Shown here one piece after another: positions 3,119 to 24,129 of a stretch of 24,129 bases of DNA. The translations under genes and the position numbers were made by a program. Source of the stretch: a virus (taxonomy: Duplodnaviria; Caudoviricetes); the IMG/VR virus record IMGVR_UViG_3300037310_000384, positions 1-24,129 of that record. One strand, written 5' to 3'. The notes beneath the pieces were generated by a model. That model had not been told where the DNA came from. It searched no databases and worked only from the letters and a program-made list of their open reading frames with translations. Positions within the stretch are counted from its first letter, which is position 1. The number at the start of each line of letters is the position of its first letter.

Positions 3119-3333
3119 CACTTCACCTCTTCCACCAGCTTCGCGCCGCCCGGCCTGTCGAGCCACGCCACGACCAACGGGTCGTTCGTAATTTCGCCTT
3201 GCCGGTAAATGTCAAGCTGCTGCACTAGAATGCGCGCCCAGCGCGCCGGGGCCGGCACAGCGGCGGGAGGCGGGTTTCCCTCTGTCTCCCCATCTCCCTT
3301 TCTCCCCGTCTCCCTGGTTACCTTCGTTGCCAT
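3118..3333 (-). CDS. Small hypothetical protein following the capsid gene
   Basis: 71-aa ORF with AGGAGG upstream. Contains a CTCCCCRT-like octamer array at about 3277-3314. Confidence 0.6.
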   Translation of the reverse strand: MATKVTRETGRKGDGETEGNPPPAAVPAPARWARILVQQLDIYRQGEITNDPLVVAWLDRPGGAKLVEEVK

Positions 3334-3343
3334 CGTCGCCTCC

Positions 3344-4411
3344 TTACTGCTTGACGGTCATCACCACGACGGACTTGGCGAATTGCATTCGCGGGCCGCC
3401 GTAGAAGCCGCCCGTGAGTTCGATACGCGGGTTTTTGCCCGCGCCCAAGTCGGCCATGCTGACCGCCGCGCTGCCGCGATTCGATTGGCCGTTGACCTCG
3501 ATGAAGGCGAACATGCCCGGCGCGGCTTGCCCGGCGCGGTTGAGCCGGTGAGGCGTCGGCGTCAGGCAAAAATCGCCCACTTTCTGGCCCGCCGGACGGC
3601 GGCCCGGAATGGCGATTTTGCCGTCCGGGATGAACAGCTCGAAGTCGCCGTCCAGTTTGTAATAGCCCTCGTCATAGACTTCGAGCATGGGCAGGCCGCG
3701 CGCGCCCAACAGCTTGTTCATCTCGCCGAGGTCCGAAGGCGTGTTGCGGAAATTCTCGGCGCGGAAACCGGCCAGGTCGTTGGCGTTGGCGTTTTCCAGC
3801 AACCAGTTGGCGGTGGTTTGGTTGAGATAGGCTTTCGCGCCCTGAATGGTCGCGCCCGTGCCGCGAAAGAGCAGCTTGACCTGATTGAAATCGTGGAGCG
3901 GGCGCGCGGTGGCGACCGTATCCCAATCCACCGCCGCATCGTAGGTCTGCACCGGGAACGTCTCGCTCACCTTGACGCCGTTTTCGTCAATGGCGAAGCC
4001 GCCAAAGAGCGCTTGCCAGCGCAGCCATTCGGCGCGGATTTTGTTTTTGTCCATGCGGGCCTTGAGCGTGCGCCCGACGAGCGTGGTCAAGTCCACCATC
4101 CCGCCGAGCGTGCCGAGTTCGCGGGCGCGCAGCAGTTCGTTTTCGCGGATAACATCGGTTTCTTTGAAGTGCAGCGGTTCGTAGCGATGCGTCTTCGAGC
4201 CGGGGCGCGCGGCCTGTTTGGGGTCTGTGCCGGGATTGTGCGCGGCGGTCATGCCCAGTTCGTGGTCGAGTTCGTCCCACTCCACGAACGTCGTTTCGGT
4301 GTCCATGAAGGGCAGAATTTCCTCGCCCTTGAACATATCGGACGGAATCTCGTAATCGCGCACTACCTCGTTGAGCGACTCGTTCGTCGGGAAGCGATAG
4401 GTTATTGCCAT
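3344..4411 (-). CDS. Major capsid protein (lambda gpE-like family)
   Basis: 355 aa with a GAGGAG RBS. Motifs ETTFVEWD, PLHFKETDVI, EWLRWQALFGG, W..ATARPLHD, VYDEGY and FIPDGK. It follows the protease and decoration genes. Confidence 0.85.
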   Translation of the reverse strand: MAITYRFPTNESLNEVVRDYEIPSDMFKGEEILPFMDTETTFVEWDELDHELGMTAAHNPGTDPKQAARPGSKTHRYEPLHFKETDVIRENELLRARELGTLGGMVDLTTLVGRTLKARMDKNKIRAEWLRWQALFGGFAIDENGVKVSETFPVQTYDAAVDWDTVATARPLHDFNQVKLLFRGTGATIQGAKAYLNQTTANWLLENANANDLAGFRAENFRNTPSDLGEMNKLLGARGLPMLEVYDEGYYKLDGDFELFIPDGKIAIPGRRPAGQKVGDFCLTPTPHRLNRAGQAAPGMFAFIEVNGQSNRGSAAVSMADLGAGKNPRIELTGGFYGGPRMQFAKSVVVMTVKQ

Positions 4412-4460: not shown

Positions 4461-5014
4461 AACTTGAAAATGCCCGCGACGGCGCTGACGCCGCCGAGTT
4501 CCGTCTTGGCCGTGCCGTCCAGCCCGCTCAGGTCCGCTTCGACCAACAAACCGCCGATGATGGCCGGGATGGGCGTGTCGCCCACGCCGTCGCTCGCTTC
4601 GTCGGCAATGAACTTGGCGACCTGCGAACCATCGCTGCCCAAGACCGCCGCGCCCGCCGCCACCGCGACGGCGGCGTTGCCCGTCAGCGTGATGATGTTG
4701 GTCGTCGTGTTGACGCCGCCCGGCGCAATCGTGCCGATGGTCGCGCCGGCGGCATTTTTCAGCACATCGCCCGGCGTGAACACGGAGGCGTCGGCCACTT
4801 GGCCCGTCGTACTGTTGGTGGCGAAACCTGCGCCGGCGGCCAGTGCATGAGTGCGCCGCCGGGCCAGGCCCGTCGCCGTGATGAGGCCGCACACCGCGCC
4901 GCGCGCGACCGCGAAACCGGCGGCAATCGTGGCGTTGACCAAAATCACCAAGTCTTCTCTCAGCGCGGCCAGCGACTTACGCGCCGGGTCTGTTCTGACT
5001 AAAGTAGTTGGCAT
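4457..5014 (-). CDS. Head decoration protein (lambda gpD-like position)
   Basis: Ala/Gly/Thr-rich 185 aa with TIAAG..VARGAVCGLITATG, located between scaffold and capsid. Confidence 0.65.
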   Translation of the reverse strand: MPTTLVRTDPARKSLAALREDLVILVNATIAAGFAVARGAVCGLITATGLARRRTHALAAGAGFATNSTTGQVADASVFTPGDVLKNAAGATIGTIAPGGVNTTTNIITLTGNAAVAVAAGAAVLGSDGSQVAKFIADEASDGVGDTPIPAIIGGLLVEADLSGLDGTAKTELGGVSAVAGIFKF

Positions 5015-6063
5015 TATTTGTCACCTCCGTCTTTTGTCTGCGGCAGGCCCGCCGCTTTTCGCAACGCGGCCACCTCGCCCGGATTGGCGAAGTTGGACGT
5101 GCCGTCTTCGGCCAGATTCGAGAATCTCTCGCCGAACTGGACGAACGGGCCGAGACCGCCAAGAAAGCCCTTGAACCACTCAAGCTGCGATTGCTCGCGC
5201 TTGGTCTCGGTCTTCACGCCGTCTTTCTCGCTGAATTCGATGGTCGTCACTTTGGCGTCGCTGCCGGAGAGCGAGACCATAAACTCCACGACGCCCATCT
5301 GCCTGAAGGCCGGGGGGAACTTAGCCGCGCCCAACTTCTCGCAGAAAGACTCAATTTCGACGCGCGTGGCGTGGCCGTTCTGTGCGGCGACCTGCTGTTT
5401 CAGGGCGTCGGTTTCGGCGACGGCGGCCTGTAGCTTCTCCGTGAAATCCGCCGTCAGCCTCTCGGTGGCCGCCGCGACCGCCTCGTCGGCAATGCGCTTG
5501 GCGTTGGCGTCGGCCTCGCTGAAGTTGGCCGGGGCCGGCGAGGGCGTCGGAGGGCCGCCGCCGAGAATCTTTTTCAGCCATTCTCCGGCTGTCATTCGTT
5601 CGTCTTTTTCGCTCATTGTGTCCTCACTGAAAGAGACTGTGACGGTGGGCGCGACGCCCGCCGCATGAAATTGGATAGGCCGCAAGCCCTTGACCGCCGG
5701 CGGCTGCGCGCCCAAAAATCCGACGTGGCGCAAGGCCGGCCCGTCGGCGTTGAGGTAAAAACTGGCGGAACGCTTCTTGAATTTGCCCGCCGCGACCATC
5801 GCCTCGAAGTCGTCGTCCGTGTCCGCAAACTGCGCCCACAAACTGCCGTCCTCGAATTTCAAAGCCGACACCCAGCCGAAAGCTGGGCCGTTTTCTTCAG
5901 GATGGCCGATAACCGCCGGCGCTTCGTGGGCTTCCGGGTGATAGGATTTGACGACCTGCTCGAAGAACGCGGCGTCCAGATTGCGCGGACGGCCCTCGCT
6001 GTCCGGCCACGTCCCCTCGCGGCAAATCTCTATCCATTGATTGCCAAAGCCCCGTTGCGCCAT
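5014..6063 (-). CDS. Mu-like prohead protease/scaffold (gpI/gpZ-type)
   Basis: ATG 6063 has GGAG just upstream. Motifs WIEICREGTW, APAVIGHP, PAFGWV, FKKRSASF and LRHVGFLGAQPPAVKGL. A helical scaffold-like C-half begins at an internal M (MSEKDE, preceded by GAGG). Confidence 0.88.
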   Translation of the reverse strand: MAQRGFGNQWIEICREGTWPDSEGRPRNLDAAFFEQVVKSYHPEAHEAPAVIGHPEENGPAFGWVSALKFEDGSLWAQFADTDDDFEAMVAAGKFKKRSASFYLNADGPALRHVGFLGAQPPAVKGLRPIQFHAAGVAPTVTVSFSEDTMSEKDERMTAGEWLKKILGGGPPTPSPAPANFSEADANAKRIADEAVAAATERLTADFTEKLQAAVAETDALKQQVAAQNGHATRVEIESFCEKLGAAKFPPAFRQMGVVEFMVSLSGSDAKVTTIEFSEKDGVKTETKREQSQLEWFKGFLGGLGPFVQFGERFSNLAEDGTSNFANPGEVAALRKAAGLPQTKDGGDK

Positions 6064-6091
6064 ACTCCGCTCAAAAATTGTATGCAATAGA

Positions 6092-6178
6092 AAAAGCCCG
6101 CCGGTTCTTTCTCAGAACCAACGGGCTTCTCACGAGCCTCTAAAATTGCGTTACATTGAAGGGCCTCTCGCGGGCCTC
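6092..6178 (-). promoter_or_regulatory. Structured RNA leader, copy 1: two GAG boxes plus a terminator hairpin
   Basis: Minus-strand RNA GAGGCCCGCGAGAGGCCC...GAGGCUCGUGAG-AAGCCCGUUGGUUCU(GAGAA)AGAACCGGCGGGCUU-UUU. Repeated at 17512-17595 with compensatory changes. Confidence 0.8.
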
Positions 6179-6185
6179 GCTACTG

Positions 6186-6216
6186 TCCTTATATTATAAG
6201 GAGCGAAAAATGTAAA
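6186..6216 (-). promoter_or_regulatory. Sigma70-like promoter with an overlapping palindrome
   Basis: TTTACA (6216-6211), 17 nt, TATAAG (6193-6188). A TATAAT also lies in the spacer. Palindrome TCCTTATA-T-TATAAGGA at 6186-6202. Confidence 0.55.
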
Positions 6217-6218
6217 CC

Positions 6219-6407
6219 CTAACCGGCGGTAACGCTTGTCCGCGCCACCAGTTCGAGCCGCACGTCCGGCGCGCTCCATCGCTTTAAGGGCAAAGTGATT
6301 TTTGCCAGCCGCTTGCACTTGCGGCACACCATCTCCACGTCGGCCCGTGACTCCGGGCCGGCGCGAAACAACAGGGCATTACAGGAATTGCAACGAACGT
6401 CGTGCAT
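6219..6407 (-). CDS. com: Com-family zinc-finger RNA-binding regulator
   Basis: 62 aa from ATG 6407. VRCNSCNALLFR...VEMVCRKCKR matches the RCxxCxxLL...ExxCxxC pattern of Mu Com. Confidence 0.8.
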   Translation of the reverse strand: MHDVRCNSCNALLFRAGPESRADVEMVCRKCKRLAKITLPLKRWSAPDVRLELVARTSVTAG

Positions 6408-6776: not shown

Positions 6777-9235
6777 AACCGTATCTGCTTATACCGCATT
6801 CCGTACTTTTTCGCAATCTTTTTCCAAATCAGGTGGCGTCCCAAGTCTTCGGCCTTATCCAATGTCAGCGCCGAACGCAACAAACGTGGCCGCATATCGG
6901 TCTCGAATTGCCGCGAGTAGCGTTCGTGGTCGCCGATAATGTTTCTCAACAATTCCATCGTCCACCTTCCCTGTGGCGGACGCAACGAATATAAGTAACG
7001 CCGCGTGGCGACAAAAGTTTCAGCTTCGTTCTCCTCCACCGACTGAATGATGTCGTCCAAACTGAACGACTCGAAATTAAAATCGCCCTCCGGCGGATGC
7101 CAATGGATAGTCGAGCCGCCGTTTACTTTCGGCACATCTTTGTCCGGGGTCTTGACCCCCTCGGCATCGCCCCGTACTGCCCGCACGAAACGCCCCTTCG
7201 CGTCAAAGATGTGCATCACCTCTTCAGTTGGTTGAGCGCGTTGAAACTCGCGGGCGCTCTCTATAATCCGGGCCGGCGGCTTGTAATTGCGGTCAGGCTT
7301 GGTGAGCCGTTGCAGTTCCTCCAAGTATTCCGCGTCGGAACCGGGTTCGGCCTTTGTGCTGCGGCTTTGACGGGCGCGTTCCGCCGCCGCTTCAATCGTC
7401 TCGCGCAAACCCGCCTGACGCGGCACGCCCTTGAACTTGCCGCCGCTCAGGTTATGCACCTGCATCCCGTCGGACGCGGCCACCGGAACGCCGTCGTCGT
7501 TGTAGGCCAGTTGGTAGTGGCCGCTCGGATTGGCCGGCGTGAAGCTATCCGGGGGAGTCGCTGTGGCCGAAACCGAACAGCGGCAGTTGGAGGCGAAAAT
7601 GCCCTCTGCTACAATCCATCCGCCTTCAGTTTGGAAATCGAAAACATGACCGCAAAAATCGAAGTGCCGAATCTGGATAATCTCATCAGCCGCTATGAGA
7701 GTGGAATATCCATTCTGCAACTCAGCCGCGAACTCGGCTTCTCGCGCCCCGTTATCACCCGCGCCTTGCGTGCGTCTGGCCTCCAATTGCGAAGCCCATC
7801 CGACCAAGAGAAGATTAAATGGCGAAGACTCAAGCACGTCCCTATGGCTGTCGCCCGGCAGTGCGGCGCGGCTTGGCAGGCGCGGCGCGGCAGCCAAGAT
7901 ACTTTTGACACCAAGGCCAAACGCGCTGAGTCCCATTTCCTCAGCAAATGCCGCGTTCACCGCTTTGAGGATGTTGTTTTGACTGCCATCCAGTCCGTCG
8001 GGCTGGATGCTGTTTCGCAATTTCCCGTTGGGGGCTACAACCTCGACATAGCCATTCCCAAACATGGCATCGCGGTGGAAGTCGTTTGGAGTAACTGGAA
8101 ACCGTGCCAGATTGCCAACATTCACGAGCGCACGGAATACTTGCTCGACTGTCAATGGGCTGTCATTTATGTTTTCTTGTGGCGCAAAGACATTGGATTG
8201 CTTCGCCCGCGCAACCCTGATGGAACTTTTGCCCCGCCTGTCCGCCTGCAACCCTGGTTTTCTCCCGCCAAGATAGCTCAATACATAATTTCCCTGACCG
8301 AGCGATTGCGCCGCAACGAAGCCCTCGGCGGTAAGTATCGGGTGATTAGCGGTAACGCGCACCCGATTCCCGCTCCGAGTGGTTATCTCAACGGCTTTCC
8401 CGTCATACCATGAGCGAAAGCCGAGTTGGAATCTACCTTGAATTTTCGTGCCAGGCAGAAAGCAGTTGAAGCCCCAAGGGGGATAGTGTTCGTCCCAGAA
8501 CGGGTCGTTGGCCGGTTTGATGAGTCCGTCAAGGGCGGCATGGGCCGGGCGCGTGCGGTCATCCAGTACGGCGTGATACTCCCAATAAGGCAAATCATCG
8601 GCCACGTCTTCCAGCCCGCGCCGCCGGCCCACGCCGTAGGCCATCTGCATGTTCGTTCTGAAAATCGTCTCCAGATGGAAGTCGCCTAACATGCGATGGC
8701 CGGCCCCGTCGAGGATGCCCTTGAAACGCTTAATGACGGTGGCCTGCGGCGTGCCGTTTTCCAGCGCGACGGCCAGTTCGTCGCGGAAGGCCGTCAGCAC
8801 GTCCTGGCGGTAGATGCCGCCCACGGTGAAAGCCGCGCTCTGCGCGTCATGGCGCAGGTCGCCAAACTCTTTCTTGGTGACGATTTTCTTGCTTCTGAAA
8901 TACTTCAGGGCTTCTTCCGGCGGCACGTTGAAGCGCAATTTGAGAGGCCCGGCGGTCATTTTCGGCGGCGGGTCGCCTTCAGCTAGTTCAACACGGCCCG
9001 TTTCCTCGCGGACGTGCGCCAGGCCGAGTAGATATGCGGCCAGCAGAGCGTCGCCCAACTCCAGTCCAAGCTGCGTCCAATCGTCGCCCAGATTGTCAAA
9101 GACCGCAGCCGGAAACTCCAGCTTTCCCGATTGCTCAAGCGCGGCAATGACCGCGCCTAAAATCCGGTCATAGAGGGGCGCAACCGTCGAAAGCGCGCCG
9201 TCTTCGAGGCCGATGGTGTCGGCGATTTTAGAGTT
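6773..9235 (-). CDS. MuF/gpF minor head protein with intein and C-terminal JAB-like extension, probably entered from the portal by a -1 frameshift
   Basis: MuF motifs EEALKYFRSK, AFTVGG, LETIFRTNMQMAY, YWEYHAVLDDRTRPAHAALDG and DPFWDEHYPPWGFN/CRCS. The first in-frame ATG after the A9 run is 8959, with no clear RBS. The ORF-track portion 9236-9919 is out-of-frame portal sequence. Confidence 0.85.
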   Translation of the reverse strand, partial: NSKIADTIGLEDGALSTVAPLYDRILGAVIAALEQSGKLEFPAAVFDNLGDDWTQLGLELGDALLAAYLLGLAHVREETGRVELAEGDPPPKMTAGPLKLRFNVPPEEALKYFRSKKIVTKKEFGDLRHDAQSAAFTVGGIYRQDVLTAFRDELAVALENGTPQATVIKRFKGILDGAGHRMLGDFHLETIFRTNMQMAYGVGRRRGLEDVADDLPYWEYHAVLDDRTRPAHAALDGLIKPANDPFWDEHYPPWGFNCFLPGTKIQGRFQLGFRSWYDGKAVEITTRSGNRVRVTANHPILTAEGFVAAQSLGQGNYVLSYLGGRKPGLQADRRGKSSIRVARAKQSNVFAPQENINDSPLTVEQVFRALVNVGNLARFPVTPNDFHRDAMFGNGYVEVVAPNGKLRNSIQPDGLDGSQNNILKAVNAAFAEEMGLSAFGLGVKSILAAAPRLPSRAALPGDSHRDVLESSPFNLLLVGWASQLEARRTQGAGDNGAREAEFAAELQNGYSTLIAADEIIQIRHFDFCGHVFDFQTEGGWIVAEGIFASNCRCSVSATATPPDSFTPANPSGHYQLAYNDDGVPVAASDGMQVHNLSGGKFKGVPRQAGLRETIEAAAERARQSRSTKAEPGSDAEYLEELQRLTKPDRNYKPPARIIESAREFQRAQPTEEVMHIFDAKGRFVRAVRGDAEGVKTPDKDVPKVNGGSTIHWHPPEGDFNFESFSLDDIIQSVEENEAETFVATRRYLYSLRPPQGRWTMELLRNIIGDHERYSRQFETDMRPRLLRSALTLDKAEDLGRHLIWKKIAKKYGMRYKQIRL
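7587..7615 (+). promoter_or_regulatory. Putative promoter for the antisense nuclease gene
   Basis: TTGGAG (7587-7592), 17 nt, TACAAT (7610-7615), with extended -10 TG at 7607-7608, 30 nt upstream of ATG 7646. Confidence 0.5.
7646..8413 (+). CDS. HTH + DUF559/Vsr-like PD-(D/E)XK endonuclease encoded antisense inside the intein
   Basis: 255 aa from ATG 7646. HTH LISRYESGISILQLSRELGFSRPVITRALRASG, nuclease-like FEDVVLTAIQSVGLDAVSQFPVGGYNLDIAIPKHGIAVEV...ERTEYLLDCQWAVIYV. Confidence 0.75.
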   Translation: MTAKIEVPNLDNLISRYESGISILQLSRELGFSRPVITRALRASGLQLRSPSDQEKIKWRRLKHVPMAVARQCGAAWQARRGSQDTFDTKAKRAESHFLSKCRVHRFEDVVLTAIQSVGLDAVSQFPVGGYNLDIAIPKHGIAVEVVWSNWKPCQIANIHERTEYLLDCQWAVIYVFLWRKDIGLLRPRNPDGTFAPPVRLQPWFSPAKIAQYIISLTERLRRNEALGGKYRVISGNAHPIPAPSGYLNGFPVIP

Positions 9236-16588: not shown

Positions 16589-16939
16589 TTAGCCGCCCAC
16601 GATTTCGGGCGGCGCAACTTCTTCTTCCGCCGGCGGCGCGTCGGGCGTGACGAAAATCGCGCTCACGTCGGCAGCGGCCTGGCGAACGGCGGCGATTTCT
16701 GCCCTCAAATCCGGCGCGCCCGGTGTGTTGGCAATGATTTCTTCCAACTCGGCGATTTTGGCTTCGAGCGCGGCCACGCGCGCTTGGCCCTCTGCTTTTT
16801 CCGCCGTGATGGAGTCTTTCAGCTCCTGGATGGACTGATTGAGTTCTGCAATTTGGTCTGCCATAGTTTTTATCGCTCCTGTTAGTTGGCAAATTAAGTA
16901 CGCGAGGACTAAGCCGATGGCCCCTATCAAATACTTCAT
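16589..16939 (-). CDS. Spanin-like membrane-anchored coiled-coil protein
   Basis: ATG 16939 overlaps the endolysin stop (ATGA). MKYLIGAIGLVLAYLIC followed by a long coiled coil and a Pro/Glu-rich tail. Confidence 0.55.
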   Translation of the reverse strand: MKYLIGAIGLVLAYLICQLTGAIKTMADQIAELNQSIQELKDSITAEKAEGQARVAALEAKIAELEEIIANTPGAPDLRAEIAAVRQAAADVSAIFVTPDAPPAEEEVAPPEIVGG

Positions 16940-17490
16940 AAAAGCCTCGCAATCTCGAAGTGCATCCCATCGGGCCGGGCAGCGAAGTGGCCGCCCCAAT
17001 AGAAGCCGTGCTGGTTGGCGAGCGGCACCAGTTCGCGCACCGAACCGGCGCGGCCCGCCAGCGGCGGCGTTTTGCCCAAGGGGTTCCACCCCGCATTGAT
17101 GTCAAAGGCCGAACCGAAAGCGTGATTGCTCAACACCGAGCGGCTGCCGCGAATAAAGCGTGGCACATAGGACCCGGCGTAGGTCTGGACAAGGCCCAGC
17201 AAACCGGCTTTTTCCCATGCCGCCCACAACGCGCGGAGTTGCTCGACGCACAGACGATGCCAACGAATCACGCCGTCACGGTGCAGCCCCTCGATGCCGC
17301 GCAACTGTGGAATCTCGACCTTGACGATGTTCTGGGCTTCCCAATCGCCCAAAATGCGAATCGCTTCCGGGTTGCCCGGCTGCGGGGCTGGCGCAAATCC
17401 AAATGCACCAAACACGGCCTGTCGCGCCGCGGTGTTCATCAACGGCGGGAAGGCCGGACGAGACGGGAAGTTCGAGTCATTTGGCGTCAT
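16936..17490 (-). CDS. Endolysin, peptidase M15 family
   Basis: ATG 17490 with GGAG. SYVPRFIRG, SNHAFGSAFDIN (SxHxxxxAxD), GFYWGGHF and DGMHFE. Confidence 0.9.
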   Translation of the reverse strand: MTPNDSNFPSRPAFPPLMNTAARQAVFGAFGFAPAPQPGNPEAIRILGDWEAQNIVKVEIPQLRGIEGLHRDGVIRWHRLCVEQLRALWAAWEKAGLLGLVQTYAGSYVPRFIRGSRSVLSNHAFGSAFDINAGWNPLGKTPPLAGRAGSVRELVPLANQHGFYWGGHFAARPDGMHFEIARLL

Positions 17491-17511
17491 ACGCGGCGCT
17501 CCGGGAAAAGC

Positions 17512-17595
17512 AAAAGCCCGCCGACCTGTTTTCCAGGTCAACGGGCTTCTCACGAGCCTCAAATCTGTATTCGGTTAGGGCCTCTCGCGGGCCTC
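17512..17595 (-). promoter_or_regulatory. Structured RNA leader, copy 2: two GAG boxes plus a terminator hairpin
   Basis: GAGGCCCGCGAGAGGCCC...GAGGCUCGUGAG-AAGCCCGUUGACCUG(GAAAA)CAGGUCGGCGGGCUU-UUGCUUUU. Boxes are identical to copy 1 and the inner stem covaries. Confidence 0.8.
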
Positions 17596-17610: not shown

Positions 17611-17639
17611 AAATTACCGTATTATCGGCTTGATGGCAA
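17611..17639 (-). promoter_or_regulatory. Sigma70-like promoter upstream of the lysis operon leader
   Basis: TTGCCA (17639-17634), 17 nt, TAATTT (17616-17611). Confidence 0.45.
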
Positions 17640-17648
17640 GCGGTTTAA

Positions 17649-17951
17649 TCAGCATCCGTCTCTCCCTGCCGCGCGCGAAAAGGGCGGCTCGTGTTTGTCC
17701 AAAATCTTCAGTAATGCTGCCGCCATGACGACTTTCTGGCGGCGATAGGGTAATTGCAGGTAGCCGGCCTCGAAGCGGCGACGCAGGTCGTCGGGCAGCC
17801 GCCCGCGCACATAGTCGTCCACCAGATTTTCCTCCAGCGCGGCGCAACGGTCATCCAGTTCGTCGTCCGCGAAGCAGCGCACGGCCAAGTCGCGCCGCTG
17901 CCGGGCCGGGGCTTCGTCCAACAGGCAAGCGATGATGTGTTCGTCGGTCAT
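17649..17951 (-). CDS. Stand-alone anti-sigma-factor-like helical domain
   Basis: 100 aa from ATG 17951. IIACLLDE...FADDEL...EENLVDDYVRGRL....RRRFEAGYL..PYRRQKV.MA.AL resembles the N-terminal domain of ECF anti-sigma proteins. Confidence 0.6.
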   Translation of the reverse strand: MTDEHIIACLLDEAPARQRRDLAVRCFADDELDDRCAALEENLVDDYVRGRLPDDLRRRFEAGYLQLPYRRQKVVMAAALLKILDKHEPPFSRAAGRDGC

Positions 17952-17976
17952 AAAATTGTTAATTGGAGATTTCCAT

Positions 17977-18153
17977 CTACCACAACAGGACGCCGCCAAC
18001 TGCCGCCGCCAACAGCACCACGGCGAACGCCAGCCGCCAGAACCGGACGCGCCGCTCGGCGGCCTGAATTTCTCCGTGCAGCCGCCACACGGACTCGAAA
18101 TCCGTGCAGTCGTGATAAATCACGTCCGGCCAATCTTCATCAGCGCGAATCAT
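17977..18153 (-). CDS. Small membrane protein (58 aa, below the ORF-track cut-off)
   Basis: ATGA overlap with the upstream stop. MIRADEDWPDVIYHDCTDFESVWRLHGEIQAAERRVRFWRLAFAVVLLAAAVGGVLLW, with a C-terminal TM helix. Confidence 0.6.
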   Translation of the reverse strand: MIRADEDWPDVIYHDCTDFESVWRLHGEIQAAERRVRFWRLAFAVVLLAAAVGGVLLW

Positions 18154-18788
18154 AGAGCTGCCTCCTGTGAAAAAATCTCCGGCTGCGTGGGCGGCGGCGC
18201 AGACTGTTTGGCGCGTTGGTCAATGCCGAGGCGCTGTTTGACTTCCGGGACGTGGGCTACCATCTGCGCGCGTGTAATTTTGCTGTAGCCCGCCGTTTTG
18301 AGGTCGCGCGAGGCAATGATGTTCAGCAAAATGGCTATCAACGAATGGGCTTGGCGCGGTTTGAGCAGCGCCGCCGTGCCGTGTTTGTAGCGCGCTTCGA
18401 GGAATTTGCGCTGGCCTGCGGGTGACCAGCCCAAGTCGTGGAACAGAACCTGAATCGTATAGACCTGCGCGTCGCTGGCGAGGTGGATGATTTTCGCATT
18501 CGCCTCGCGCGCCTCGGCCACCGGCGAGCGGTAAAGCTGCTCTGCGTTGGGCAGCATCGGATAGCGTTGCGCCTTGCGTAGCTCGTCCAGGGCCAGGCCG
18601 ATTTGCCGGTCACTCAAATCCCGCGTGGATTCCAGCGGGCGTTTCAGGCGCAACTTATAGGTCAGCCAATCGAGCCGCGCGTCGCGCGATTCGCCTTGGT
18701 CGCCCCGGTAAAATTTCTTCCACTCAATCTGCAAGGCCGCCATCAGGCTGCGGCGGCCCGTCGTCGTCTTCGTCGCTGTCGTTGCCAT
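18150..18788 (-). CDS. GemA-like (DUF1018-type) protein
   Basis: ESTRDLSDRQIGLALDEL and ASDAQVYTIQVLFHDLGW...LKPRQAHSLIAIL echo the two GemA blocks. Position is at the end of the early region. Confidence 0.55.
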   Translation of the reverse strand: MATTATKTTTGRRSLMAALQIEWKKFYRGDQGESRDARLDWLTYKLRLKRPLESTRDLSDRQIGLALDELRKAQRYPMLPNAEQLYRSPVAEAREANAKIIHLASDAQVYTIQVLFHDLGWSPAGQRKFLEARYKHGTAALLKPRQAHSLIAILLNIIASRDLKTAGYSKITRAQMVAHVPEVKQRLGIDQRAKQSAPPPTQPEIFSQEAAL

Positions 18789-19218
18789 TTCGTGTTTGCT
18801 CCAATAAATCCACGAAAGAAAGTTGCCCGGCCAGCGCCGGGTAGTTGTGGCGGACTATCTGCGCGAGCGTGGAAAGTTCGTCCAAGGCCACGCCGCGCCA
18901 GTACTTAATGAAGTGGCGCATCTCGTCCACGTCGGCGCACCACCAATAACCGGCGGGCCGGCGGCGCGAGGATAGAATCGGCAGTTTGTGGTGGCGGCGT
19001 AGCGCGCGGATGACCGCCTTGACGCGCCGCTCGTCCAATTTGCGGCCCAGGTCGAGCTCGGCGCGGGTGCGTATCTCGCGCAGCGCGACGGGTTGTTGCG
19101 CCGTCCCGCCGAGCAGCAGATGAGCGACGAACTCCTCCACGTCGCTCAACTCGCGCCCCCCCAACGGGTCGAATACCGCCCGCTCGTACATCTCAAATTT
19201 GAATGCTTCCTGCCTCAT
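18724..19218 (-). CDS. Winged-helix DNA-binding protein
   Basis: VALREIR...LDERRVKAVIRALRRHHKLPILSSRRRPAGYWW (HTH followed by the wing GY motif). Confidence 0.65.
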   Translation of the reverse strand: MRQEAFKFEMYERAVFDPLGGRELSDVEEFVAHLLLGGTAQQPVALREIRTRAELDLGRKLDERRVKAVIRALRRHHKLPILSSRRRPAGYWWCADVDEMRHFIKYWRGVALDELSTLAQIVRHNYPALAGQLSFVDLLEQTRNGNDSDEDDDGPPQPDGGLAD

Positions 19219-19221
19219 CTG

Positions 19222-19328
19222 CCGATTGCGGAATGCGGAATGCGGAATGCGGGTTGAACGAAACGCGCCTACTGCTTCCTGCTTCCCGCTTCCCGCCTCC
19301 TGCTTCCCGCTTCCCGCCTCCTGCTTCC
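19222..19328. repeat. Composite heptamer element, copy B: (CGGAATG)n - TTGAACGAAACG - (CTTCCYG)n
   Basis: Same architecture and core as 2667-2762. Confidence 0.85.
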
Positions 19329-19411
19329 CTCATCCCTCGCACTGGCTTGCCTCGTCAGGCGCGCGGTCGCCCACCGCTGCGCGACGCGGGGTGTGCGCCC
19401 CGCGTTTCGGC

Positions 19412-20252: not shown

Positions 20253-20320
20253 GGTTAGGGGTTAGGTGTTGGGCGAAGCCGTCTCCCCTACTCCCTATCT
20301 CCCCTTCTCCCCTACTGTCT
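20253..20320. repeat. Heptamer (GTTAGGG) and octamer (CTCCCCTA-like) degenerate arrays
   Basis: gttaggggttaggtgttggg...gtctcccctactccctatctccccttctcccctact fills the spacer downstream of MuB. Confidence 0.65.
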
Positions 20321-21340
20321 TCATCCCACCATAAGCCGCCGTCCGGCGGTCTCTATGATTTCTTCCAGTTGAATTGAGCCTTCGTTGAGGCCCTGTTGAT
20401 TGCGAGTTGCCAGTTCTCTGGCGCGCGGCAGGAGCATGTCAACGTGGCGGAAATTGCCGCCCGTCACGCTGAGGATTTTGGCTACCGCCGCGTCCGTCGC
20501 TTGGTCGCCGAGCGCGCGCCGGACGATTGCCTTGAGTTCGCCGGCGGAGAGTTCCACCAGCGGATAGTGCATCGCCACGCGGCTGGAGAGTTGCGCCCGC
20601 ACGTCTTCCGTCAGGCGCGAGGTGGTGAATAGCTCGTAGAGGTCTTTAGTGCCGACCAGGACGATGGGAACCCGCGCCACTTCCCAGAGGTAGCAAACCG
20701 TGCCGAGACTTTTCTCGGTCAGGTAATTGGCCTGGTCAACGAAGATGGGGCGCGGGTTGCGCTTGAGCCGCTCGGCGATGTTGTCTTCGAGGCGGGCCGT
20801 CGGCACTCTGTCGTCCAGGCGCAAATCCTGCGCCAGTTTCTGCACAAAGTAGCGCGGCGTGATATTGGCCGAACAGAGAATCTGAATCGGCGGGGTTTTC
20901 AATTCCGCCAGCGAGTATTGCTGGAGCGCGCGGCTTTTGCCGACGCCGGGACGGGCGTAAACCACTACAATCGCGTTCTCAGTAATGGCAGTGTGGCAAG
21001 CGTGGCGGAATTGCTGCCAGGCCCCGGTTTCCACAAAAGTCTGGCTGTAATCGTGCCGCGTGGTGCCTTCGACTCTTTCCCGGTAGGCGCGGATTTTTGC
21101 CTCTAACTTCGACGCGCCGCCCGGCTGCACGCCCATCCCTCCCTGCTCTTTGGGTATGAAATAGATTCTCTGTAAATAGGCGTCGAGCGTGGTTTTACTG
21201 GCGTTGATATGCTCTATGCGCTCCAGCACGCCAGTAGGTAGGTGCGGATGCTCTTTAATGAAGTTCTCCAGCCAAAGACGGAGTTCCTCATCCCACAAAG
21301 GCTGCCCGCCCACTATTTCGAGTTTAGGTTTAGTTGACAT
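20321..21340 (-). CDS. MuB-like AAA+ transposition protein
   Basis: Walker A ARPGVGKS, Walker B region IFVDQANYL, PIVLVGT, QLSSRV (Arg finger) and GNFR. It lies downstream of the transposase. Confidence 0.9.
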   Translation of the reverse strand: MSTKPKLEIVGGQPLWDEELRLWLENFIKEHPHLPTGVLERIEHINASKTTLDAYLQRIYFIPKEQGGMGVQPGGASKLEAKIRAYRERVEGTTRHDYSQTFVETGAWQQFRHACHTAITENAIVVVYARPGVGKSRALQQYSLAELKTPPIQILCSANITPRYFVQKLAQDLRLDDRVPTARLEDNIAERLKRNPRPIFVDQANYLTEKSLGTVCYLWEVARVPIVLVGTKDLYELFTTSRLTEDVRAQLSSRVAMHYPLVELSAGELKAIVRRALGDQATDAAVAKILSVTGGNFRHVDMLLPRARELATRNQQGLNEGSIQLEEIIETAGRRLMVG

Positions 21341-21435
21341 TGCAATTTGCTCCGTGTTTTTGCACTAGACAGGAAAGGGTGAACCGCGATAGCCTTATTT
21401 TGTTGTTACGGGGTTCGCCCCTTTCCTGAGTTAAG

Positions 21436-21963
21436 TTAATGAGAGGCTTTGATGTTAGTAGCATCGAAGCCTTTCGGCTTTTTGTTCCGGTTGCGTTCCA
21501 TAATGCCCGGGTCGAGTTCGTGCAACAGGTCATAGATAAATACCATCGCCTCAGACGCTGACATCGTTTCCGCGTCGCCCAAGTAAGCCGCAGTTTTGGT
21601 TATCGCCTGCGCTACCTTTTCAGGGAAAGCGACTAAGTTTGTTGCATATTCTTCTTTGCTGATAAAAATCACCTCCTTTCTCTTTTGTCTGACTTTCTGC
21701 GCGTTTTCAAAGATTTGCCGGCGCGTGGCTTCGCGCACTTCAGAAGAGACCACGCCTATTGGTTGAGCTTGCAACACCAACCAGGCTTGCGCTCGGATAG
21801 CTTTGTAGCAAGAATTACAGAAGGCGTGCGGCTGCCGTTGGCCTTTGTAAGCGCGAAAAGCGTGCGGCTGCCTTGTATGCCCGCACATAGGGCAGACTCG
21901 CGCCCACCGCCGAATTTTAGTTGCGGTTCGTTGCTCTTTTATGACACTGGTCAATCGCGGCAT
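21436..21963 (-). CDS. Zn-ribbon-containing hypothetical protein
   Basis: CPMC-x19-CNSC, basic composition, abutting the upstream stop. The DNA is visibly more AT-rich. Confidence 0.65.
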   Translation of the reverse strand: MPRLTSVIKEQRTATKIRRWARVCPMCGHTRQPHAFRAYKGQRQPHAFCNSCYKAIRAQAWLVLQAQPIGVVSSEVREATRRQIFENAQKVRQKRKEVIFISKEEYATNLVAFPEKVAQAITKTAAYLGDAETMSASEAMVFIYDLLHELDPGIMERNRNKKPKGFDATNIKASH

Positions 21964-22371
21964 CTATGCGGCTTCCTCTGCCAACTCCCCTGCGGGTGTA
22001 GCGTAAAAGTCTCCGTTGACGGCGGGCGTCACACGCGGCACCCGACAAGGCAAATTGTTCGGTAAAATGACCCACAGCGCATCCACTTTATCGTTATAGA
22101 AAACCTCTACATGGTGGCCGAAAAACGGCGTCAGTTGCGGCGAATCGTAGTACCAATCATCCTGATAAAAAGTGAAGCCATGCACTCCGACCTCGCGCAT
22201 CTGAGAACGCATCGTGAATTGGGCTTGTAAGCCCTGAAAAGCAATTTCCTGCACGATGCTCTCCGCCGTCTGAATCGGCGCGTCATCACCGAGCGCGGCG
22301 ATATGCTCTTCAAACGGCGTGAAATAGGCAGTCAAAAAACTCTCCAAAATCTTGGCGCGGGTTGCGTCCAT
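21964..22371 (-). CDS. Stand-alone Mu-transposase C-terminal-like domain protein
   Basis: ATG 22371 with GGAGG. It aligns by eye with the C-terminal barrel of the adjacent transposase. Confidence 0.65.
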   Translation of the reverse strand: MDATRAKILESFLTAYFTPFEEHIAALGDDAPIQTAESIVQEIAFQGLQAQFTMRSQMREVGVHGFTFYQDDWYYDSPQLTPFFGHHVEVFYNDKVDALWVILPNNLPCRVPRVTPAVNGDFYATPAGELAEEAA

Positions 22372-22373
22372 CG

Positions 22374-24129
22374 TTAAAAATCCTCCGTTTCCCAAGGTTC
22401 TCTAATCCGCGCCGGCTGTTTGGGCGCGGTAAAAATTTCGTCGGCAGCGGCGGCGGCGGCCACGTCTTCAGCAGTAATTTGCGGCGGGACGGCGCGCAAT
22501 TTCGGCGCGGCCATCCGCGTCAACTGGTGGACGGATGCGCCCCCGCCGGCGCGGGGCGCGTCGTTGACGGCCAGCGGCAGTTCGACGGCCACCGGCTCGA
22601 CGGCGCGCAACTGAGCCGCGACGCGCTCCTCGGTGGTCTCGCCGCGCGCGATGCTGGCCGCCAAGAAATTGAACTCGCGCACCTGTTTGCGTTCGTGCGC
22701 GCGGGCGCGGGCGATGGTTTCGAGCGTCTTTTTGTTGGGGTTGTTGAGGGCCGTCGGCGTGACCAGCGCGGCCTCCACGATGCGTTTGTCGGGCAGGATG
22801 CACCAGACCCGGCTGAAGTCGTTGTCGGTGTAGCGGATTTCGACCTGTGCGCCCTTGAATTCCCACATCGCGTCGTGCAAGAAATTCCAGTTTGCCTGGA
22901 ACATCTGGACGCCATTTTTTCCTATTTTACGGGTCTGCGCTTTCATCAGCAGCAGCGCGAGAGCCTCGTCCGAGATTTCGTAGCGCGTCGTGTAGAGCCG
23001 GTTATATTCCTCAAAAGGAATAATCTCCGCGCCGCCCAATGTGGCGCGCGTGTGGGCCGTGTGGTTGTGTTCCAGAATCCAGCCCGACAGGTTTTCGCGG
23101 TAATCCTCCAGCGTCATAAAAGGCGACTCGCCGCGTTTGCCCTTGCGCCATTTCTCGTGTTGCGCCCACGCCTGATGCCACGCTTCGGGTTTGTTCTTGG
23201 CGTCGCGTCCGCAGTATTCAGGGGTGAAGGTATTCTGTTCCCAGTCGGAAATGTCGCGGTGAACCCGTTCGACGGCCTTCTCGCGGGCGTTGTAGCCTCG
23301 CGCCAACAGATGCTTCAAGCCCATCTCATCAACAAAGCCCACTTTCCGTTGAGTGCAAAGCACTTCTAGGCCGCCGGCAATCTTCGCCGCCTCTTTGAAA
23401 ACCAGCGTCTTGCCGTCCCATGTCTGCGATTTATAATCGCGGCCCTGGTCGGTGTAGATATAGGAGTAAAAATCTTGGTCGGGCCGCGAGAGAGGTTGCG
23501 CCCCGTGCGTTTGCACACCGTTGACGTAGGCGAGTCCAATAGTGCGGCTTGAAGGCGTTAAATCCAGATGCCAGCCCCAAATCAAGTAAGTGCGGAGGTC
23601 GAGCCAGAGCGTCAACCAGGGCCTGGTCAACGCGCCATCCGGCCCCACTACCGTCACATCGCGGATGGAGTGGTCGCCGCACAAAACTTGCAGGGCTTCA
23701 AGGTTGCGGTAATCACGCGGGACGTAGGGCGCAAACTTTGAGGTGTAAGCCTTTTCGCCTTTCCAGAGCAGGGTCTTAACCGTTGCCGGGATGTCTTCGT
23801 ATTTGCGATAAATCCAGGTCTCGGAAGGTATCACCCAGCCGTTGCGCCGGGCGCGTTTTTGCAGTTCGCGGTAAAGGGCGCGGGGACTGCCCCAGTTGCG
23901 GAAATTGTTATTGACCCACTCGGCGGCGGCTGGCGAAATTTCGGCTCTGCGTTTATCGGCAGTTGTAACTTTAGGAAGGGAACGCAGGAAGGCGCAGAGG
24001 CCGTCTTTCTTGAACTTTCGCAGCCATCCGTCGAGAGTAAAGGGGCTAGGGCATTGCGCCCTGTGGGGTTCGTGAGCAAGCAGAAGGGTATCCGAACACG
24101 CTGCCTGCCGGCACAGCGCGTGGACGGCG
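22374..24129 (-). CDS. MuA-like DDE transposase (5' end beyond the window)
   Basis: The frame stays open from 23834 to the right edge ([14 protein letters not shown]...). Catalytic motifs [17 protein letters not shown] and [10 protein letters not shown], plus C-terminal RKIGKNGV...VEIRY. Confidence 0.93.

Follow-up and report, generated by a model that had tools for sequence, protein, structure and literature searches.

A Com-like zinc ribbon and paired box–terminator leaders as a candidate attenuation system for the late operons of a transposable phage

What decides whether the late genes of a transposable phage are transcribed, when both of its late operons are headed by copies of one terminator-like leader and one of these copies lies directly behind a gene for a relative of the RNA-binding Com protein of phage Mu? 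The question is raised by the DNA considered here. The window, that is, the whole stretch of DNA that was analysed, is a virus record of 24,129 bases with an estimated completeness of 32%. Its phage genes lie on the minus strand throughout and comprise those for a transposase, a MuB-like ATPase, GemA-like proteins, an M15 endolysin, terminase, portal and an intein-containing gpF, together with, in the late part, a com-like gene and genes for head protease, major capsid and homologues of Mu gp36 and gp37. The layout is fixed by the following loci:

20321..23834, minus strand: Mu-type transposase and MuB-like AAA ATPase (Pfam PF09299, PF02914, PF13401)
16936..17490, minus strand: M15 peptidase endolysin, first gene of the lysis/packaging block (PF13539, E 2e-15; PHROG endolysin)
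5014..6063, minus strand: head maturation protease, first gene of the head/tail block (phrog_976, E 6e-61; Pfam matches)

The first of these loci marks the carrier of the element as a transposable phage. By PHROG and Pfam matches, the lysis/packaging block runs from the endolysin through the terminase subunits, portal (PF06074) and gpF to com, and the head protease is followed downstream by the capsid gene (3344-4411) and then by the gp36, tail-S and gp37 homologues. An acidobacterium is the probable host, since close relatives of both the element and the genes around it are found in records titled Pyrinomonadaceae and Blastocatellia, and since the ORF at 17649-17999 resembles Acidobacteriota clusters. 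This stand-alone ORF (minus strand), the last gene before copy 2 of the leader and not found in eight related contigs, resembles the N-terminal part of acidobacterial anti-sigma factors, and zf-HC2 occurs in about 40% of the members of its Atlas clusters (score 0.95). A second minus-strand ORF, at 18724-19218, is the conserved phage protein phrog_2113, which in five related contigs directly precedes the GemA-like gene and whose nearest families are, at the level of a lead, HTH-like; as a candidate DNA-binding regulator it could add control at the DNA level. The intein of gpF is of 293 aa (7586-8464, minus strand) and is absent from the gpF proteins of the related contigs G015 and G006. Wholly inside it, on the opposite strand, lies a 255-aa ORF (7646-8413, plus strand), the weak HTH_58 and MTES_1575 nuclease matches of which suggest that it encodes a homing nuclease, antisense to the intein. 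At 2659-2773, 19214-19349, 3276-3322, 20281-20319 and 1621-1693, in or between genes, there are also short tandem-like repeats (GGAGGCA-type units and others) and a perfect inverted repeat of 22 bp.

The two leaders, both on the minus strand, occupy 6085-6178 and 17506-17595, ahead of the head/tail and the lysis/packaging block, respectively. An earlier annotation made from the letters of the window (the sequence-only reading) had described two leader copies that share two boxes, each box being identical between the copies and the boxes being separated by spacers of 20 nt in copy 1 and 17 nt in copy 2, and had placed copy 1 some 40 nt behind com. All of this can be read directly from the sequence, including the com stop codon 40 nt ahead of box 1 of copy 1:

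6161..6178, minus strand: copy 1, box 1, GAGGCCCGCGAGAGGCCC; hairpin GA-GGCC-C-GCGA-GA-GGCC-C, which folds at -7.2 kcal/mol
6123..6140, minus strand: copy 1, box 2, GAGGCTCGTGAGAAGCCC; hairpin GA-GGCU-C-GUGA-GA-AGCC-C
17578..17595, minus strand: copy 2, box 1, GAGGCCCGCGAGAGGCCC (from sequence, pattern and descriptor)
17543..17560, minus strand: copy 2, box 2, GAGGCTCGTGAGAAGCCC, overlapping the terminator base (from sequence, pattern and fold)

Each box is identical in both copies, and box 1 and box 2 differ from one another at three positions. What the earlier annotation had missed is that each box folds as a hairpin of its own, of the form GA-stem(4)-C-N(2-5)-GA-stem-C, in which the loops of the window boxes read C-GYGA-GA and are followed, after the 4-bp stem, by C. 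Also absent from it was the compensatory change by which a C-G pair of box 1 is replaced by U-A in box 2. A pattern derived from the boxes has four exact matches and one three-mismatch match in the window, against 0.29 by chance, and none of 100 shuffles reaches five matches, although this test is partly circular since the pattern was made from the boxes themselves. A hairpin descriptor, composed with the window boxes in view, gives five matches, namely the four boxes and one inside a gene, as compared with a shuffle mean of 0.95, and it finds two tandem pairs in the window versus one across all 200 shuffles. That the element is a host repeat was considered and rejected, exact box matches with the full anatomy being confined to related phage contigs (4 of 13 loci). 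In Rfam there is no match to the element, either in the window or at 20 related loci, where the only returns were chance microRNA matches far below the cut-off and away from the element.

In both copies the 3' half of box 2 is at the same time the 5' arm of the base of a larger, terminator-like hairpin. Necessarily, therefore, the box 2 hairpin and the larger hairpin are mutually exclusive. The latter are as follows:

6085..6128, minus strand: copy 1 terminator-like hairpin (15 bp, 6128-6094) and U-tract UUUUUCUAUUG (6095-6085); fold z -4.4
17506..17548, minus strand: copy 2 terminator-like hairpin (17548-17514) and interrupted U-tract UUUUGCUUUU (17515-17506); fold z -7.0

As had been described, the 15-bp hairpin AAGCCC-GUU-N6 / N6-GGC-GGGCUU with a U-rich tail is present in both copies, and its inner stems differ yet pair (GGUUCU/AGAACC versus GACCUG/CAGGUC). 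The GUU/GGC step becomes a 2x2 loop on the plus strand, where the fold is some 10-12 kcal/mol weaker than its minus-strand counterpart. Both hairpins are far more stable than shuffles, and the minus strand folds better than the plus. In a scan of the window they are the only strong minus-strand hairpin-plus-U sites, at -24 and -26 kcal/mol as against -12 and -14 for two other sites, and they have the form of an intrinsic terminator, in which a GC-rich hairpin runs straight into a U-tract on the transcribed strand. A simple terminator scan of the window reported neither leader hairpin.

The protein that would act on this structure is encoded at the end of the lysis/packaging block:

6219..6407, minus strand: com-like gene, 62 aa, with a CxxC-x18-CxxC zinc ribbon and a low-confidence tail (phrog_13819 gpCom, E 6e-6)

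The 62-aa protein is 45% identical to Mu Com over 33 aa, and an alignment of 21 element-linked proteins (A2), in which C6, C9, C28 and C31 are invariant and form two N-terminal CxxC pairs, meets Mu Com with an HH probability of 97.6. Its AlphaFold model is a four-strand ribbon with pLDDT above 90 over residues 1-40, the tail being of low confidence. The window protein has no match to Pfam PF10122, its 62%-identical relative scores 19.0 where the cut-off is 22.9, and 24 of 54 aligned relatives match the family at E ≤ 0.01. By these sequence comparisons, then, the protein is a divergent relative of Com that stands outside the formal Pfam family. A three-sequence Com profile matched 133 proteins in a 50%-identity representative library. 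Other routes to relatives gave less: Foldseek with the 62-aa model gave only weak rows, of zinc ribbons, and nothing at E ≤ 0.001; in NCBIfam neither the window protein nor Mu Com goes under the name Com; a word-seeded protein search with the window protein returned the query alone; tblastn against cultured phages gave no matches; and protein-pattern scans for Com added no loci to those already known. As for the other regulators of the Mu system, the sequence-only reading had recognised no mom or Mor/C-like gene. Neither Mor/C (PF08765) nor Mom (phrog_1384) is matched in the window or in five records searched, all of them incomplete. The absence of mom is a weak argument, however, since the record itself is only about 32% complete, and the phage as such may have mom.

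The stronger evidence on what the leaders are comes from their relatives. A search pattern comprising box 2 and the terminator base gave 96 matches at 94 viral loci, with 70 unique sequences, which were split into 53 terminator-like matches (the outer four pairs closed in the predicted fold and at least six T in ten bases, two of these fixed by the pattern) and 17 others. Tests of selection were restricted to positions that the pattern had left free. At the free stem position, 50 of the 53 have C, as against three of the 17 (p 2e-9). One purine is shared by the two folds, and with the matches taken as 45 sequence groups its mismatch in the box fold (C-A) occurs twice where 9.7 are expected, and that in the terminator fold (A-C) not at all where 7.2 are expected, these being counts that are not fully independent since the groups derive from local DNA similarity and not from a tree. 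An upstream box, for which the pattern had not searched, lies within 70 nt in 24 of the 53 terminator-like matches, as against none of the 17 others and five of 843 control windows. When boxes are matched by sequence only, 24 of 35 pair fully upstream of the element versus 3 of 202 elsewhere. Among relatives, each position of the box stems is occupied by pairs of several types, 69 G-U pairs are counted on the sense strand against 10 on the antisense, and the more stable fold is the sense one in 44 cases and the antisense one in seven, with two ties. The leaders are thus a real and widespread RNA element, and, on this comparative evidence, both rival hairpins covary in the 53 related elements from other phage contigs and are under pairing selection. 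Two single loci may be set beside these counts. At L147 the upstream box, GAAUGCCAUGAGCAUC, 16 nt upstream of the pattern match on the minus strand, is nearly the Mu operator itself and stands before a terminator and a head gene; L367, in a Latescibacterota record, has two elements within 1 kb.

The same comparisons bear on whether the boxes act as DNA. Box 1 can be read as a direct repeat, GAGGCCC-N4-GAGGCCC, and the relatives have the conserved HTH-like ORF, such that one might picture operator repeats for a phage or host DNA-binding protein (the product of ORF 18724-19218, for instance) beside a constitutive terminator. Against this, box halves break the repetition yet keep the pairing (GAGGCTC/GAAGCCC, GAGACTC/GAAGTCC, GAATGCC/GAGCATC), the spacers vary from 2 to 5 nt, G-U pairs show the strand asymmetry given above, and the element is found together with Com in phages of unrelated types. 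We regard this reading as highly improbable.

That co-occurrence, which the sequence-only reading had suggested looking for, is pronounced. A Com-like profile match is present in 34 of 50 element-bearing records and in two of 50 control-terminator records. The former are drawn from the 53 after one that shared a contig and two near-duplicates were left out; the latter are the first 50 of 62 terminator-like loci obtained with a loose terminator pattern from a sample of about 2,800 stretches, mostly plain terminators, leaving out L101, which carries a true box. With the 19 profile-training records and one close relative removed, 14 of 30 records have a Com match (p 7e-6), counted as profile matches, some of which are weak or partial. 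Many of the 16 element-bearing records (of 50) with no Com match are fragments. In an independent sample (120 of about 580 genome loci), the fetched flank holds a Com-like match at 10 of 47 terminator-like loci, one of them downstream, versus none of 74 others.

Starting from the protein, a search of 251 genomes of the class of G102 gave nine matches in seven genomes, two of the nine being already known. Of the seven new com-like genes, three are directly followed by tandem boxes and a terminator, one has a same-arm terminator but no box and three have neither, the descriptor thus finding no box at four of the seven. It likewise finds none in Anaerostipes phage AC844P1, which has a com-like match, and it does locate boxes close to where com ends in B3, Smp131, DVM-2008 and 2F_1. 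At L396, L398 and L400 (in G101 and G104) the box and terminator lie within the last codons of com (ending TEALEAQG), which is where Mu has its operator, and the genes behind them are not clearly late. At L409 and L412 the com stop codon is inside box 1, and a ribosome finishing com would therefore cover the box.

Given a Com protein and a Com-type hairpin, the nearest precedent is translational control, which is the only demonstrated mechanism of Com (PMC6483171, in its accessible part). In such a scheme Com would open the large hairpin to expose the region where the first gene starts, the U-run being either incidental or an aid to ribosome loading. In keeping with this, 6 of 48 relatives have the start codon no more than 12 nt from the hairpin, and many relatives have no Shine-Dalgarno sequence. 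The start codons of the window, however, are 32 and 25 nt past the hairpin base with GGAG outside the hairpin, and the median among the relatives is 26 nt. Moreover, long U-tracts accompany the intact boxes that have C at the free position, whereas the com-adjacent boxes of Mu, B3, Smp131, DVM-2008 and 2F_1, judged by eye, have no U-tract in 70 nt. Translational control is accordingly an unlikely account of these leaders.

Upstream of each leader are sequences that resemble promoters:

6188..6216, minus strand: promoter-like TTTACA-17-TATAAG, copy 1, imperfect
17611..17639, minus strand: promoter-like TTGCCA-17-TAATTT, copy 2, imperfect

The sigma70-like promoters of the sequence-only reading stand in part. 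The hexamers are present, and the related contig G015 keeps them (TTTACA/TATAAG; TTGCCT-17-TAATTT) while the spacers diverge; both sites are nevertheless imperfect, and neither is reported by a sigma-70 promoter scan of the window. Over the wider set, 18 of 52 loci have a promoter-like site 8-45 nt ahead of the first box, versus 40 of 564 control windows. Tandem boxes close to predicted start sites and ahead of blocks of more than 10 kb are also what might be expected if Com acted on the polymerase or on the fate of the RNA, the boxes either loading a processive antitermination complex, for which nut- or put-like sites are the model, or protecting or exposing a short leader RNA. Such an action is harder to square with the exact overlap of the two hairpins and the one purine that pairs in both folds, as a local switch would predict, and the lysis/packaging block offers no other strong minus-strand terminator-like site to override. 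We give it a smaller chance even than translational control.

The reading that we favour, at a probability of roughly three in four, is Com-dependent attenuation of the late operons, in which the Com ribbon would bind the box hairpins, the terminator base would stay unpaired and the polymerase would read through. Transcription would start upstream, from the leader's own weak promoter or by read-through from early genes, and would by default stop at the leader hairpin. With Com present, the zinc ribbon would bind the hairpin loops on the growing RNA and keep the base of the terminator from pairing, after which RNA polymerase would continue into the lysis/packaging and head/tail genes. The choice between termination and read-through would thus be made during RNA synthesis. 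Com should have time to bind, since box 2 is complete about 30 nt before the 3' arm of the terminator is made. With box 2 held, the upper 10 bp could still form and would no longer abut the U-tract; box 1, optional in relatives, probably adds affinity or cooperativity. In copies 1 and 2 the predicted fold with box 2 held is less favourable than the terminator fold by 11.0 and 9.7 kcal/mol, and in it the upper stem is detached from the U-tract. The terminator fold being the more stable by these amounts, Com must win kinetically or bind tightly.

We infer the direction of the Com effect, and the U-tract of copy 2 is interrupted; it may therefore be asked whether Com binds and represses, or whether the elements are unregulated, leaky terminators that set the dose of the late genes. 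A stabilised box 2, though, removes the terminator pairs that lie next to the U-tract, and a dose-setting terminator has no need of a conserved rival hairpin. Both variants seem very improbable beside attenuation relieved by Com. That Com binds the box, blocks the terminator and switches on the late operons was also the proposal of the sequence-only reading, and it has gained strong comparative support from the operator descriptor, the pairing, the co-occurrence and the late-gene context; its weaker parts are the promoters and the feedback loop.

The late-gene context is evident from what the elements precede. By PHROGs, the first downstream ORFs (48 in number) comprise 21 head or packaging, three lysis and three tail or connector genes, the rest being three others (co-chaperonin, methyltransferase, peptidase), four of unknown function and 14 with no match. 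The element of L182 stands before a GroES-like gene, and that of L197 before a ParB-methyltransferase gene. In G015, G006 and G016 two elements head two late blocks, even where the blocks are inverted, and in the rearranged relatives G006 and G016 the element has kept its place ahead of the same modules. A few copies from Bacillota fall within the final codons of com and are followed by genes that are not clearly late, so the module is not confined to late operons.

In the window com ends the block headed by copy 2 and no clear promoter precedes it, from which it follows that a positive feedback, started by leakage through the terminator, is possible in this phage; we place it at about even odds. 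The gene order on which the sequence-only reading had based such a loop fits in the window, in G015 and G006 and at L338, but in G016 and G036 com follows early or middle genes, for which reason positive feedback was rejected as a general rule.

Records that bear the element are titled Acidobacteriota, Bacillota, Nitrospirae, Nitrospina, Deltaproteobacteria and Patescibacteria, and one carrier, L387 (Anaerosalibacter bizertensis), is an isolate. We incline, with some reserve, to a broader view in which Com zinc ribbons would be widespread, overlooked antiterminators of phage late genes, one protein of 40-70 aa and one small operator hairpin gating the morphogenesis and lysis operons of Mu-like and other tailed phages of several phyla. 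The control of mom in Mu would then be a special use, and in the present phage Com would replace a DNA-binding late activator and constitute a self-amplifying lytic switch. Phage late genes are known to be controlled by DNA-binding activators, by polymerase modifiers of the Q/N type and by phage sigma factors. If the proposal is true, attenuation by a tiny RNA-binding zinc ribbon would be a simple addition to these modes, and many unannotated com-like genes would acquire a function. The 62-aa protein and the 100-nt leader are directly testable in E. coli, and natural variants of the boxes may supply new protein–hairpin pairs and protein-switchable terminators for synthetic biology.

How the system compares with those already described may be considered in turn. 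Among catalogued RNAs, Rfam GP20-a and GP20-b are likewise candidate cis-acting elements before head scaffolding genes; identity with GP20-b was rejected, as its six matches contain no box, and GP20-a had no matches among 121 genomes. As a bare structure candidate the element does not appear in one part of the PMC10690425 supplement, the remainder of which, and the supplement of PMC5737381, may hold one. No link between Com and a terminator was found in the literature searched, which took in few subscription papers; the accessible part of a review of antiterminators makes no mention of phage, zinc or a Com protein (PMC12591593), and in the sections available of two further papers Com homologues are treated as regulators of methyltransferase or cargo genes (PMC3299994, PMC6240691). 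In Pseudomonas, com-like genes stand before llpA and before the cargo or lysis genes of tailocins, which takes Com homologues beyond mom, and their general regulatory role is, according to the review that describes them, still to be explored; no RNA site or terminator is described for these loci in its accessible part (PMC6240691), and the box of DVM-2008 is one of those with no nearby U-tract.

The closest likeness in protein and operator is to Mu. Mu Com is, like the window protein, a four-cysteine zinc ribbon, and the descriptor GA-x4-C-N(2-5)-GA-x4'-C finds the Mu operator as its only match in 1,487 nt of Mu around com. By SELEX and SHAPE, in the accessible part of the study, Mu Com selects the motif GAG-NN-CC-(N)2-3-GAG-NN-CC and reads CC(N)2-3GAG in a hairpin loop, and the Mu operator has the same form as the window boxes, with GA, a 4-bp stem, a loop C-N-GA and then C (PMC6483171). 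The SELEX motif has 2-3 nt between C and GA, whereas the window loop, with 4 nt, is one base longer, and it has a C-G closing pair where box 2 of the window closes with U-A (PMC6483171). Com in Mu exerts positive control in that a small hairpin is stabilised against a larger one and the mom start codon is freed (PMC6483171, same part). Mu, however, has one site, which overlaps its own gene, and an adjacent hairpin that hides the next gene's ribosome site and start codon. Here there are tandem boxes at two distant sites, and the rival hairpin is terminator-like and hides neither. Likewise the target in Mu is mom, directly behind com, whereas here the targets would be the lysis, packaging, head and tail blocks and the gene next to com is the head protease, with mom possibly elsewhere given the incompleteness of the record.

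In architecture the leaders are closest to the targets of the ANTAR proteins (EutV, AmiR, NasR), in which, as far as the accessible part of the source describes them, tandem mini-hairpins with conserved loop bases are bound by protein, the second overlaps the 5' base of the terminator, and binding excludes the terminator (PMC3369931). The likeness ends there: the ANTAR loops are hexaloops with A1 and G4, where the boxes have C-N(2-5)-GA (C-GYGA-GA in the window); the ANTAR linkers are of 5-12 nt, against 11-41 nt in the viral matches; and ANTAR requires both hairpins, where box 1 is found in fewer than half of the relatives (PMC3369931, same part). The ANTAR protein is moreover a helical domain, compared with a zinc ribbon here, and no ANTAR domain is matched by Pfam among 30 window proteins. 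In other words, we infer that the leader works in the manner of ANTAR with an unrelated protein and loop.

Finally, lambda Q and N and HK022 put act by processive modification of the polymerase, and Mu C is a DNA-binding activator. With all of these the present system shares the principle that entire late operons are placed under the control of a small phage product or RNA site; as distinct from them, the element here looks like a local RNA-folding switch.
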